A DNA stretch of 64,000 nt from an uncultured Gemmatimonadota bacterium. GTDB taxonomy: Bacteria; JAAXHH01. Below are positions 52,995 through 60,107 of this stretch, piece by piece. Position 1 is the stretch's first letter; each line of letters begins with the position of its first letter. The notes under the pieces were generated by a model. That model had not been told where the DNA came from and did no database searches. It worked only from the letters and a program-made list of their open reading frames with translations. The DNA lies in assembly GCA_951812955.1 (NCBI GenBank), contig OX638340.1, positions 3,104,001-3,168,000 of the forward strand. The letters run 5' to 3'. Position numbers and translations under genes: made by a program.

Positions 52995-55900
52995 CTACTG
53001 TTGCTGCTGTTTCTCAAGTTCTTCCCACTGTTTCCTGAACTTTTCCTGGGCTTCTTTAGCTCTTATTTCGTGAGGTTGATCGTCGTAATCGTACATAGCC
53101 TTCTCAAGCTCTGTTTGTTTGTAGAACTTCGTTGTGCTTTCTATCGATTCGAGTTTTCCTAGTGCTTCGGCAATGTGGAATAGTTCTTCTATCATAGTAC
53201 TCTCTACCATTCCTGCATTACCCTTAATCAACGCCTCATTGATATATGCCACTGAACCTGTTTGAGGGATTATCACCTCTTCTATTTCATCGATGGTTCT
53301 GGCGAAGGCAGGAAAATACCGGAAGTGTATCTGGGCAAGTCCACGGTACGTTTCACCGTCTGGAGCGATATCAAAAACGAATTCCTGAGTAGCTTTATGT
53401 ACATGGTTGTACAACTGATTCCCGATTTCTGTCTTCCTCAGGTTGGCGAAATAGCCCTCGAATCGTTTCCTTTCTACGATCGACAGATCAGATGAGAGTT
53501 TGATAACCCTCCCATCCGGGTCCACATATTTAAGCGGATTGTTGTTGGCATAGGCGTACGGGCTCCGTCCCGGATACTCGTCCTGCATGGGATCGGGCCG
53601 CAGGAATCGGCCTATATTGTAAGCATACGTCCTTGCAAGCATGTAGTCAAGGCCGGACTCGGCGTCTCTCTCGTGGCCGGTGAATCTGAAGTGCGTCTGC
53701 TCTGATCCGCCGGATGCCAGGATATCGCCGTAGGGCCAGTAATCGTAGGCGGCGGTGACCGTGCCTTCCTCATCCACGAGGCTTCTGGTGCTTCCGAGAT
53801 GATCGGTCAGGAAGTAGCTTGCGCTACTACCTGCTATCCGCGCTATTCTTCTGCTGCCCGCGTACACGTACCTTGCAGATAGCATCTGACCCGAGTATTC
53901 GGCCAAGACGGATCCGCCTGGTCCCCGCAGGTAGTAGGTGGTCACCGTGCCTACGGTCTTCTTCACGCGCCGTCTGTCGGGATCCATGAGATACCGTGCG
54001 CTGCCGTAGCCGGTGGTAAGCCCGCGGTAGTCATAGCTCACTGTATCAGTGCCCTTGCGCGTCATCCACCCGTTCGGATTGTAGGCGTAGTTCTGCCCAC
54101 CGGTGCCGGTGGTGCTGTCCAGCCTGTTGGGTGTGGAGGCGGACGTGTAGTTGTAGGTGAGCGTACTGGTACCTGTGACCAGGCTGGTGATATTTCCGTT
54201 CCTGTCGTAGGTGTAGTCCTGCGAGGTACCGCCCGACACGTCGAAGCCGGTGATCCGGTACAGGTCGTCGTAATCGTAGTCCGCGGTTATGGACGCGGCG
54301 CTACCGTGCCGGTACACCTGCCTGGTGACGTTGCCCACGTGGTCGTAGGTGAGGGCGGACTTGAACGTGCCGGCATAGTTCAGGTCTGTGACCCATTCCC
54401 GCGCGTTGTAGGTGTAGGATCCGGTGATGGCGCCGTCTCCCGCGACGTCGCCCACTCCGTCGCCCACAACGTGGGTGGCGATATTACCCGCGGCGGTGTG
54501 GGTGTAAGCAGCCAGGGTCTTGCCTTGCGCATCCCACACGCGGCTGAGCCGCCCGGCGCTGTCGTAGGCGTAGCGCGCCTGGCTGCCGTCGGGATATATG
54601 AGCCTGGTGATGCGCCCAGCCAGGTCGTGGACGTATTCTACCGTCTTGTCGCCGGTCAGGCCGTCGATGTCGACCTGCTTGACGCGCACGTTGCCGAGAT
54701 GGTCGTAGGCGTACAGGTAGCTGACCTCGGCGGTCGCGTCGGCGTCGGTGTTCTCCTCGACGTTGGTCAGACGCCCCTGGGTGTAGTTGGGTCCACCGCC
54801 TGCGGCATCACCGTCGTCGTAGGTCATGCGGCTTCGCCAGGAGGTGGTATCGCGTTCGAAGGGGTAGGAGCTTTCGGGATCTAGGGAGGCGAACGTGGCC
54901 GCTGCCTCGCCCACGCGCGTTACGCGCCCGAAGGCATCGTAGACGGTGTAGGTGATTTTCTCAGTGGCGTTGCCCGTGCCTGCAGCCTTCTGCCGCGCGT
55001 CCTGTGAAAAGCGCACGCGGCCCAGGTCGTCGTACTTGTAGCGGACTGGTCCGGCGGCATCGGGGTGATGCCTGGAGGTCATACGCCCCAGGGTGTCGTA
55101 GGCGTAGGTGGTGGTGGCGGTCAGCGGCCTGGCGGTAGTGCCTCTCTCTGGCATGGTGGTGGAGATGAGGCGATCCAGGGCGTCGTAGACAAAGGACGTC
55201 TTGTTGTTGCGGGTAGCAGCGTCCGTGCCCGCCGAGTCGGCGATGGCATAGCGCATGCGTCCGTAGGTGTCGTAGACGCTGGTGGTTGCCACCCCCTTCT
55301 CATCGTCTACGGTCTGGAACGATCGTCCCTGGCCGGACTCGATACCCCAGTTCCCGTAGCGGGTATCGACCGCATTATCCTGTGTGTGCCCGGGCGGGAT
55401 GACCTGCGATACCCGCAGGAGGGGATCGTCGTCGTAGGAGACTTGAGTGATGCGTTCTGCCGCGTCTGCGCGGGCCAGGGCGCCGTAGGTATGCGAAGGT
55501 GCCCGGTATACGGGACCAAGCAGGGTTTCGGGTTTATTGACGCGGTTGTAGTTCGTCTGGGCGACGATGTCGTTTGCGCCGGCGCTGGCGCGGGTCTGTA
55601 TCTGCCTGGCCAGGCCGTCGAAGGAGGAGGCCACCATCTCGGCGGCGCCGACGTAGAGGTTTGCGAGATATCCGTTTCCGGTCTCTCCCCGGGCCCTGAA
55701 GGCGGGCGTCCAGTTCGCGGGGACGGAGACCGAGGCCGACGCGCCCTTGAAGCGGGTCGTCTCATGACCGTAGAGCCACGCGTTCACGGTGCCCGTGGGC
55801 TGGAGCTCCATCTCCACGCGGGCCCAGGGCCATCTCCGGATGTATCCGGGCACGAAGGCCGAGGAGGCGGTCTGTCCGTCCACCCTGCTTTCAAGTTTTA

Positions 55901-60107: not shown

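Follow-up and report, generated by a model that had tools for sequence, protein, structure and literature searches.

A Sec-signal Rhs/YD protein with a predicted double-size shell and an exchangeable tip in Gemmatimonadota

The rhs gene and its signal peptide

The stretch of DNA analyzed in this study (the window, 64,000 nucleotides of contig OX638340.1 from an uncultured Gemmatimonadota bacterium) carries a large rhs gene on its minus strand. The encoded Rhs protein is probably a Sec-exported polymorphic toxin, and its gene is followed by two paralogous genes (A and B) and a row of orphan rhs fragments. The remainder of the window holds housekeeping genes (ffh, trmD, topA, selA, and genes for a Xer-type recombinase, a sigma-70 factor, and M23 peptidases), and no secretion systems were found elsewhere in it. 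The two neighboring Peptidase_M23 genes (32917-34949, plus strand) come after the sigma-70 family gene (32044-32916) and are routine cell-wall genes that show no evident connection to rhs. The gene and its signal peptide are located as follows, with protein positions given in amino acids (aa).

52995 to 60107, minus strand: main rhs gene, 2,370 aa, stop codon included; assigned from the open reading frame (ORF) and its translation, with matches to RHS_repeat (1.5e-13), YD_repeat_2x (9e-15), and Rhs_assc_core (2e-20)
60024 to 60107, minus strand: Sec/SPase-I type signal peptide, aa 1 to 28, with predicted cleavage at VHG/QQ; n/h/c layout read from the sequence

Translation starts at the ATG at 60107, which is preceded by the ribosome-binding site (RBS) AAGGAG at 60114 to 60119 with a 6-nt spacer. 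A separate gene call on metagenome contig L090 gives an identical 2,370-aa product. We rejected a longer ORF (52995 to 60287, 2,430 aa) because an RBS is absent at 60287, whereas AAGGAG precedes 60107. The longer version is further disfavored by divergent homologs, which begin at the signal peptide, and the upstream 'KEF' that is conserved in close homologs is the translated RBS.

The N-terminus of the Rhs protein reads MQRHLCCFAVR-MLIGILMLSTAA-PIVHG/QQ (slashes mark cleavage sites here and below), and thus combines a basic n-region, a 12-residue hydrophobic core, and small residues at positions -3 and -1. This layout is kept in 36/36 homologs, including those of 34 to 43% identity whose sequences differ in this region. 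Because it is the layout rather than the sequence that has been maintained down to 34% identity, this conservation provides the strongest evidence that the Sec signal is functional. A lipoprotein signal was rejected because the Cys residues at positions 6 and 7 precede the hydrophobic core and are not conserved, and a lipobox is absent. Sorting by a type IX secretion system (T9SS) was likewise set aside, since the polymorphic C-terminus should leave no space for a conserved C-terminal sorting domain.

An earlier note on this DNA had proposed a Sec signal peptide behind a strong RBS, and had favored Sec export over delivery by a type VI secretion system (T6SS). Comparison with relatives supports both proposals. 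In addition to the family-wide signal peptide, the Rhs protein gave no match to PAAR, VgrG, or DUF4150 in segment scans, even at E<=10, and T6SS genes were found neither in the window nor in 14 related loci.

Relatives of the Rhs protein are few. When 5.8 billion protein clusters were searched with the N-terminal 1,520 aa as the query, 36 proteins were recovered; nearly all are 2,350 to 2,450 aa long, and those with names are labeled as products of Gemmatimonadota metagenome-assembled genomes (MAGs). A profile search with the N-terminal 1,505 aa returned the same 36 proteins plus three marginal matches, and a profile of the most divergent members added none. Among the GTDB species representatives, approximately seven genomes have a full-length relative, two of which are labeled Latescibacterota and Planctomycetia. 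Large unannotated Bacteroidota proteins share only the first ~130 aa, a region that carries the SpvB-type motif ...VDYFSG.WSY..PL...WVGLGWNL.

The Bacteroidota proteins are exemplified by those at L017 9980-17449 (Chitinophaga sp.) and L056 9962-16627 (Pedobacter sp.), and approximately 70 further loci are of this kind. These proteins are 2,200 to 2,500 aa long and have a signal peptide, the shared stretch ...VDLFTGDFKYNIPL...WVGLGWNL..., and YD-like repeats at the end. Their genes are preceded by genes for proteins of ~800 and ~365 aa and are followed by a gene for one of ~265 aa. At E<=0.001 they have no Pfam match except for one sub-threshold cEGF match, and phmmer found no full-length relationship.

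A shell predicted from both halves of the protein

Two AlphaFold2 (AF2) predictions covering aa 29-1228 and aa 1171-2370 were built on the 37-sequence family alignment. The mean predicted local distance difference test (pLDDT) scores are 64 for the N-terminal model and 61 for the C-terminal model, and the predicted template-modeling (pTM) scores are 0.47 and 0.39. Several blocks are confidently predicted. The parts of the body of the protein are listed below.

57996 to 60023, minus strand: TcB/SpvB-like N-terminal shell segment, aa 29-704; mostly beta hairpins in the AF2 model, with the motif QVDYFSGNW...WVGLGWNL
57438 to 57995, minus strand: 'module 0', aa ~705-890; confident beta-rich domain without a specific fold assignment (pLDDT 80-92 block)
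56562 to 57155, minus strand: ConA/LamG-like module 1, aa ~985-1182, containing WHRLRIAWKNGRWW; pLDDT 73-89 and ConA-like matches by Foldseek
56451 to 56540, minus strand: RHS/YD repeat between modules 1 and 2, aa 1190-1219; Pfam RHS_repeat E 5.8e-7 in a segment scan
56139 to 56243, minus strand: small '3-coathanger stack' element, aa 1289-1323; NCBIfam NF045639 GCX_COOH, 28.2 bits versus a cut-off of 26
55632 to 56135, minus strand: ConA/LamG-like module 2, aa ~1325-1492, containing VDGQTASSAFVPGY...WARVEMEL
53742 to 55610, minus strand: canonical Rhs/YD shell, aa 1500-2122, where homologs have DUF6443

Foldseek matched the N-terminal model to the mosquito protein SGS1 (8fjp, 2.8e-21), YenB (5kis_A, 3.8e-13), TcdB2-TccC3 (6e-12), and the SpvB N-domain (6p0x, 5e-7), and the C-terminal model to Rhs cores, teneurins, and YenC2. 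Because its N-terminus matches SGS1 and the TcB/SpvB half of Tc cocoons, the models suggest that the whole protein is best read as a double-size (BC-type) YD shell consisting of a TcB-like half followed by a TcC/Rhs-like half. In length (2,370 aa) and in the order of its parts, it also resembles a TcB-TcC fusion. The earlier note had described the first ~1,500 aa as a non-Rhs region. Instead, the models indicate a shell of the TcB/SpvB type for this region, in which scattered YD repeats flank the inserts, rather than a PAAR/VgrG-interacting domain, which that note had named as an outcome that would speak against its proposal. That shell repeats flank the inserted modules is evident from the RHS repeat at aa 1190-1219, since it sits between modules 1 and 2.

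Modules 1 and 2 are both modeled with the two-sheet jelly-roll beta-sandwich fold (~150-200 aa) of ConA/LamG domains. ConA-like Foldseek matches of the N-terminal model include sialidase BT_1020 (5mqr, 6e-8), the globular domain of calreticulin (3pow, TMt 0.50), trans-sialidases, and galactocerebrosidase; judging from the aligned lengths, these matches probably fall on module 1. At the sequence level, the Pfam Laminin_G_2 match to module 1 (aa ~1075-1131, E 0.15) is sub-threshold at 13 bits versus a cut-off of 22.9. Profile searches against the PDB gave a marginal 'seed lectin' match for module 1 (E 0.0026) and none for module 2, and hhalign between the two modules returned a probability of 4.8%, which is not a significant relationship. 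Therefore, the two LamG/ConA-like segments noticed earlier stand as beta-sandwiches at the fold level (AF2 and Foldseek), whereas neither qualifies as a Laminin_G member by the Pfam and PDB profile searches.

Similar insertions exist in SGS1, where a carbohydrate-binding module (CBM) and an ERGIC-53-like lectin carbohydrate-recognition domain (CRD) lie within a multi-turn YD shell (PMC9935623). By analogy with these SGS1 domains and with the lectin partners of teneurins, a receptor-binding role for the ConA-like modules is plausible. In the most divergent family member (P0036, L004 10001-17779, 2,592 aa), the 'module 0' region is ~150 residues longer, and the extension is apparently a second related segment as read from the sequences. 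This suggests that the beta-rich insertion could be a modular, expandable unit.

The tip, its partner genes, and the orphan modules

The C-terminal end of the Rhs protein and the two genes that follow it are arranged as shown here.

53511 to 53741, minus strand: Rhs-associated core/aspartyl autoprotease, aa 2123-2199, ending in PLKYVDPDG; TIGR03696, 73 bits versus a cut-off of 32.5
52998 to 53510, minus strand: polymorphic toxin tip, aa 2200-2370, GC 0.42-0.45; zincin-like family
52167 to 52979, minus strand: paralog A, 270 aa, candidate immunity protein; RBS AGGAGG, N-terminus MGAVWCVLAGLMLVDA/DD
51292 to 52170, minus strand: paralog B, 292-aa ORF, second candidate immunity protein

When the core is aligned with TccC3, its HERD motif falls on R650/D651, RPDP falls on D674, and DPDG/R falls on the DPDG/L cleavage site. 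The autoprotease predicted to free the tip inside the shell thus appears intact at the level of its aligned residues.

Beyond the DPDG boundary, family members differ sharply. Protein identity is flat at ~70% over residues 1-2199 and falls to ~10% at aa 2200, and the tips of other members include Tox-URI2, LHH, Ntox10, and others. The tip in the window gave no match to Pfam, NCBIfam, or PDB families, and the sequence and profile searches of the PDB returned only noise (EcoRI, PABP RRM). It carries EELFH at aa 2307-2311 (53175-53189) in place of HExxH, followed by a D.D..P.EIRA motif (53058-53090). Five family members have related tips with 24-41% identity. In their alignment, HELRH or HEIFH occupies the position of EELFH, and E2308, H2311, and D.D..P.EI.A are invariant. 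Thus, although the tip had been described earlier as lacking any recognizable motif, alignment with its relatives reveals one.

An exhaustive profile search of 1.84e9 representatives recovered only 29 relatives of the tip, of which 5/29 also carry RHS repeats. Matches to Peptidase_M91 (PF14891) were obtained for five of these relatives (best E 8e-8), to DUF6782 for one (3.5e-6), and to a phage metallopeptidase family for two. The PF14891 and DUF6782 matches belong to the relatives; the tip in the window itself reaches no family threshold. Across the aligned tip family (n = 30), HExxH is present in 26 members and EExxH in four, which are the window tip, P0042 (61% identity), P0053, and P0061. 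EExxH is thus a recurrent variant and not obviously a product of decay. Two of the three other EExxH tips are only ~20-25% identical to that in the window. We consequently describe the tip as a probable non-canonical member of a rare zincin-like family that is distantly related to Peptidase_M91. The possibility that it would match a known family, against which the earlier note had set its proposal, is realized only in the form of this loose kinship to zincin effectors through relatives, and not by any match of its own in Pfam, NCBIfam, or the PDB.

Paralogs A and B are 26% identical (E 7e-29) and have no Pfam or PHROG match. The B family comprises only seven clusters among 5.8e9 proteins, none with a Pfam match. 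Downstream of the rhs genes for P0022 and P0024 (loci L001 and L003), whose tips are ~40% identical to that in the window, an A-ortholog (40-42%) is followed by a B-ortholog (51-55%) in the same order. After the gene with the more distant P0010 tip, a single member of the paralog family occurs and is 38% identical to A. Tips of this family thus travel with members of the paralog family, as toxin and immunity genes do, and the pairing is seen in four loci. On the basis of this linkage, an immunity role is predicted for the paralogs.

In every member of the paralog family, the N-terminal 14-18 residues are mostly hydrophobic, and A is the last of them, before D, E, or Q. The earlier note had assigned signal peptides to both paralogs and had suggested that the target compartment is periplasmic or extracytoplasmic. 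Short, hydrophobic, and cleavable-looking N-termini are present, whereas a basic n-region is not. The longer N-terminus of B is probably a start-codon artifact, in that translation would begin at a GTG at codon 16 to give 277 aa, and the extra 15 residues (including RR) would lie upstream of the true start. Because every cognate downstream member has such a hydrophobic N-terminus, an extracytoplasmic target is plausible, which is short of proof.

A comparison between strains places the point of exchange. The cassette composed of the tip, A, and B has a GC content of 0.42-0.45 compared to 0.62-0.67 for the body of rhs. In a sister strain (L007), the N-terminal 1,520 aa of the Rhs protein are 97% identical, and the flanking AAA+ and ThiD/ThiN genes are shared. 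DNA identity between the window and this strain is 95% from 62772 down to 53512 and ends exactly at the DPDG codon, beyond which the cassette is replaced. Additional rhs fragments lie further downstream.

49527 to 50918, minus strand: orphan rhs fragment 1, whose tip is interrupted and resumes with its Tox-URI2 domain (1.1e-14) in a separate ORF at 49062-49484
48368 to 49036, minus strand: immunity candidate for orphan 1, 222 aa, intact; 62% identical to the gene after a URI2-type orphan in L003
45003 to 47644, minus strand: orphan rhs fragment 2 (45356-47644, 762 aa) with a third tip type, and then a 107-aa low-GC gene
43553 to 44401, minus strand: orphan rhs fragment 3, a truncated piece of 282 aa whose DNA is 84-85% identical to that of the rhs shell in L007

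Together, the DNA break at DPDG and the downstream orphans constitute classic Rhs C-terminal displacement. Orphan 1 stops straight after ...GAASLAQNIR, and intact tips of the same type are present in P0001 and P0008. Because these two proteins hold intact versions, orphan 1 looks like a disrupted and displaced tip.

Proposed mechanism and release, and likeness to known systems

The DNA upstream of rhs contains two genes and a non-coding element.

60290 to 60400, minus strand: conserved ~105-nt non-coding element ending in a hairpin and T-run, ~190 nt upstream of rhs
60566 to 61465, minus strand: gene for a protein of 298/299 aa that has a signal peptide, a Big_2-like part, and, at its C-terminus, a domain of ~145 aa
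61462 to 64000, minus strand: C-terminal half of a gene for a ~1,725-aa Big_2/Big_9 repeat protein that runs off the window; the full gene is present in the syntenic loci L007 and L089

Both upstream proteins share the ~145-aa C-terminal domain (SPWSVS..NVYRLTGNVGIGV..PADYVF..HLPGI.. and then a coiled coil), which corresponds to no Pfam family. The 298/299-aa protein is encoded directly upstream of rhs in L002, L004, L006, L007, L010, L012, and L014, where it is 50-76% identical (100% in L007). In L007, the gene order is a 69-aa single-transmembrane protein, an 82-aa ORF, a 126-aa Peptidase_M15_3 protein, the 1,725-aa repeat protein with immunoglobulin-like (Ig) repeats, the 298-aa protein, and rhs. 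By synteny, the stretch with the holin-like and M15 genes would lie just past window position 64000 (L007 2431-3395, L089 3785-4749). The 126-aa protein matches Peptidase_M15_3 (1.6e-18) and PHROG endolysins (1.5e-27), has the H..D..H zinc motif, and has no signal peptide. The 69-aa protein has one transmembrane segment and a weak match to PHROG holins (E 0.0018).

This holin-like/M15/Ig-repeat set is found upstream of rhs in 7/14 loci, the same seven that carry the 298/299-aa protein. They include L004, in which the Rhs protein is only 34% identical and yet the holin-like/M15 set is present. The 69-aa and M15 proteins are 85-96% identical across loci in which the Rhs proteins have diverged to 34%. 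At L005, rhs is preceded by a gene for a 764-aa protein with the same ~145-aa C-terminal domain, and the holin/M15 pair is absent. The region upstream of the Rhs protein P0034 at this locus (L005 1-9959, from a MAG labeled Planctomycetia) instead contains a secretin/OmpH/PilN/PilO-type cluster and several unannotated genes.

The ~105-nt element is a single-copy feature within the window. Its core is nearly invariant (CTCGCGTCCC..GCGGACCCGCACCCCGCGGACCTTC.AGCGTCCCCGTGCTACTTCTGAT), and it ends in a GC hairpin plus T-run. Elsewhere, copies that are 85-98% identical occur upstream of rhs, of the holin-like gene, and of some orphans.

L007: 2185-2289
L006: 2819-2925 and 18622-18724
L001: 9698-9802
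L002: 7712-7816
L003: 1469-1545
L004 (Rhs protein 34% identical): 1220-1307, 1759-1858, 9727-9807, and 26068-26168

Rfam and promoter/terminator scans of the rhs leader returned no match, and RNAalifold on 11 copies detected no covariation, the core being invariant. It might serve as a regulatory leader common to these genes, as an operator, or as a terminator.

From these observations, we propose that the protein is a Sec-exported polymorphic Rhs/YD toxin whose entire conserved body of 2,200 aa forms one double-size cocoon. First, the signal peptide would carry the unfolded chain over the inner membrane via Sec, as its conserved architecture suggests. Second, the shell would fold in the periplasm around the C-terminal tip, and the aspartyl autoprotease (HERD/RPDP/DPDG) is predicted from its aligned residues to free the tip inside. 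The two ConA/LamG-like beta-sandwiches and a beta-rich third domain would interrupt the shell wall and lie exposed on it, as candidates for binding glycans or receptors. Third, the M91-related zincin-like tip may act on an envelope or periplasmic target, with one or both of the linked paralogs protecting the producer. Fourth, as the strain comparison shows, recombination at the DPDG boundary swaps tips and leaves displaced tip and immunity orphans downstream. We consider these four steps, taken jointly, to be somewhat better supported than not.

A fifth and weakest step concerns release. The likeliest route for the Rhs protein through the peptidoglycan and outer membrane would be one like that of a type X secretion system (T10SS), using the 69-aa holin-like protein and the signal-less M15 endopeptidase, whose genes accompany those of the two Ig-repeat surface proteins. 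In Serratia, ChiW and ChiX are needed for the Sec-exported proteins ChiA and Cbp21 to exit the periplasm (PMC5778951), and Yersinia Tc toxins are released by a T10SS lysis cassette (PMC10847048). A holin-like protein encoded together with a zinc peptidoglycan peptidase that lacks a signal peptide is a T10SS signature, and by analogy suggests T10SS-like release. Taken on its own, this function is a tentative suggestion drawn from the observed gene linkage, and we give it less than an even chance. A more elaborate version would be a TcA-independent, 'BC-only' system of Gemmatimonadota, in which a Sec-exported double-size cocoon with lectin modules would combine dedicated holin/M15 release with guidance or delivery by the Ig-repeat proteins, which share a tail-fiber-like C-terminal domain, co-regulation through the shared ~105-nt leader, an EExxH zincin cargo aimed at the target cell envelope, and a periplasmic immunity pair. 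We offer this version as a speculation that is rather unlikely to be correct in full.

Several points weigh against the proposed mechanism. The quality of the AF2 models is moderate, so that the packing into a single closed cocoon is unreliable and the N-terminal 680 aa are patchy. Likewise, the Pfam SpvB match (aa 253-299, E 0.027) is sub-threshold at 14 bits versus a cut-off of 22. The tip in the window lacks the first zinc-binding His, which makes catalysis uncertain, and its own AF2 model is uninformative (pLDDT <45). The N-termini of the paralogs are atypical for Sec signals in having no basic n-region. The holin/M15 pair lies outside the window and is absent from the 10-kb upstream flank of L001, L005, L009, L011, and L015, the holin match is as weak as stated above, and no spanin was identified.

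The alternative that survives best is a contact-dependent toxin that is retained on the surface like WapA and the bacterial teneurin-like proteins (TLPs), in which case the holin-like and M15 genes would serve the Ig-repeat proteins or be a phage remnant. There is precedent for Sec-signal Rhs/YD toxins without dedicated machinery, since Sec-dependent YD toxins of the teneurin-like and WapA-like types (PMC13018210) and signal-peptide RHS toxins as a class (PMC3482391) are recognized. Approximately half of the loci have no holin/M15 pair within 10 kb, and lectin-like modules would suit cell-cell contact. However, Pfam and NCBIfam scans and the homolog N-termini revealed no lipobox and no cell-wall-binding, S-layer, or T9SS C-terminal domain by which the protein might be retained. 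Furthermore, a folded periplasmic protein of 260 kDa would still require an outer-membrane route in a diderm, and the presence of the same ~105-nt element before rhs and the holin-like gene hints at common control. We regard surface retention as possible but unlikely.

A second alternative accepts export of the Rhs protein and questions its cargo. The EELFH tip could be catalytically dead, leaving the protein to function chiefly as an adhesin or decoy with lectin modules; alternatively, the tip might bind a target instead of cleaving it. The replacement of the first HExxH zinc ligand by Glu is the main reason to consider this explanation, along with the absence of a Pfam match for the tip itself. 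We know of no characterized zincin with an EExxH motif. Glu is, however, able to ligate zinc, and the recurrence of EExxH in four divergent members that keep the catalytic Glu, the second His, and D.D..P.E..A is more indicative of a maintained variant. Both partner genes are also intact and conserved. A dead tip is accordingly judged improbable.

Third, the protein could be one component of a Tc (ABC) toxin, namely its BC subunit, with a TcA pentamer from another locus as its docking platform and eukaryotic host cells, rather than bacteria, as its target. Its TcB/SpvB-like and TcC-like halves are what such a subunit would have, a T10SS-like lysis pair is nearby as with the Yersinia Tc toxins, and several MAG names suggest host-associated sources (sponge being an unverified reading of these names). 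Nevertheless, neither the window nor the 10-kb flanks of the 14 loci contain a TcA-like gene, and Pfam scans gave no match to FG-GAP or to the TcB propeller families TcdB_toxin_midN and TcdB_toxin_midC. A conserved Sec signal is not a Tc feature, and the presence of cognate immunity-like genes and orphan arrays is characteristic of polymorphic toxins that act between bacteria. A Tc subunit is thus quite improbable. Least credible of all is a T6SS effector whose PAAR/VgrG adaptor is too divergent to recognize, which is disfavored as highly improbable by the cleavable signal peptide in all relatives, by an N-terminus that models as a TcB/SpvB-like shell rather than a PAAR or plug domain, and by the negative results for PAAR, VgrG, DUF4150, and T6SS genes reported above.

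Known delivery routes for Rhs/YD cocoons are the T6SS, the type VII secretion system, and TcA injectors. How the signal-peptide Rhs toxins of diderms exit the cell and reach their targets is an open question, as stated in a 2026 paper on TLPs (PMC13018210). The Gemmatimonadota family offers a concrete and testable case, in that a Sec signal is combined with a shell of TcB-TcC size and lectin-like surface modules, and in approximately half of the loci rhs adjoins a holin-like/endopeptidase pair similar to those by which Tc toxins and Serratia chitinases are released. With this family, the SGS1-type design of a giant YD shell with lectin domains is also seen in bacteria, free-living or symbiotic, from a phylum that has received little study. 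Also brought to light is a small zincin-like toxin family in which EExxH recurs as a variant and which has a private, duplicated immunity family. Signal-peptide RHS toxins, BC cocoons, lectin insertions in YD shells, and the T10SS are each already known. The novelty lies in finding such features together in one small family restricted to Gemmatimonadota: a Sec signal, a TcB-like half that lacks both a TcA partner and a recognizable propeller, ConA-like insertions, a DUF6443-type Rhs part with polymorphic tips and orphans, and frequent linkage to holin-like/M15 genes and two Ig-repeat proteins. Current concepts are not overturned by these observations, whose value lies in a well-delimited new model family rather than in a new principle.

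Among known systems, the T6SS Rhs effectors (RhsA, Tse5, RhsP, Tse15, and Salmonella bongori Rhs) resemble the Gemmatimonadota protein in the shell fold of the C-terminal ~900 aa, the core, the autoprotease, and the genetics of C-terminal displacement and orphan modules. In contrast to these effectors, it has a signal peptide, a shell that is twice as long, and no PAAR/VgrG, N-terminal plug/cleavage module, or T6SS genes. The HExxH of the tip relatives recalls Peptidase_M91 (NleD-type) and DUF6782 effectors and Tox-MPTase toxins, and metallopeptidase RHS tips are a known category. Unlike the M91 and DUF6782 proteins, however, the tip in the window has EELFH, belongs to a tiny family, and has its own D.D..RP.E.RA motif and its own immunity-like family.

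In the T10SS of Serratia (ChiW/ChiX) and the Yersinia Tc cassette, a large cargo is likewise encoded beside a small membrane protein and a LAS-type zinc peptidase of peptidoglycan that has no signal peptide, and ChiA and Cbp21 are also Sec-exported first. The differences are that the holin-like protein is a weak match with one transmembrane segment (ChiW has three) and that the pair is missing from half of the loci.

WapA of Bacillus and the TLPs (9ifo) share with the Gemmatimonadota protein a signal peptide in place of a T6SS adaptor, a YD shell, and a polymorphic toxin with an adjacent immunity gene. TLPs consist of an FN-plug, NHL, and a YD shell, mostly with a TIP domain, and WapA has cell-wall-binding repeats; none of these distinguishing features was detected here. 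Pfam and NCBIfam scans revealed no NHL or other propeller family, and only the YD-shell part matches 9ifo. The Gemmatimonadota protein instead has a TcB/SpvB-like half and ConA-like modules. TLPs have been reported from six phyla, and Gemmatimonadota is not among them.

The Tc BC cocoons (TcdB2-TccC3 of Photorhabdus and YenB-YenC2 of Yersinia entomophaga) are alike in having ~2,400 aa, a YD-repeat C-terminal half, Arg/Asp/Asp autoprotease residues, a DPxG boundary, and a variable tip, which the shell is predicted to enclose in the Gemmatimonadota protein as well; its SpvB-type start is a probable likeness. Linkage to putative holin/endolysin (T10SS-like) genes in many loci would be a further one. 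The Gemmatimonadota protein differs from them as a single polypeptide with a Sec signal and lectin-like beta-sandwiches in its shell. It also comes from Gemmatimonadota rather than from insect pathogens, and its immunity-like genes and orphan arrays point to bacterial targets.

Mosquito SGS1 is an animal protein that is thought to derive from a bacterial Rhs protein. It differs from the Gemmatimonadota protein in its two beta-propellers and wedge domain, and its cargo consists of membrane-inserting helices and Tox-SGS. It is also non-polymorphic, has no immunity genes, and shares an identity of ~9-14% outside the core. Nonetheless, SGS1 is the best structural match of the N-terminal model, is among the best matches of the C-terminal model, and is the best sequence match of the Rhs core. 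Both are read as a single-chain, multi-turn YD shell and carry a signal sequence, through which SGS1 enters the secretory pathway, and the CBM and ERGIC-53-like lectin-CRD of SGS1 are inserted in its shell much as the ConA-like modules would be.

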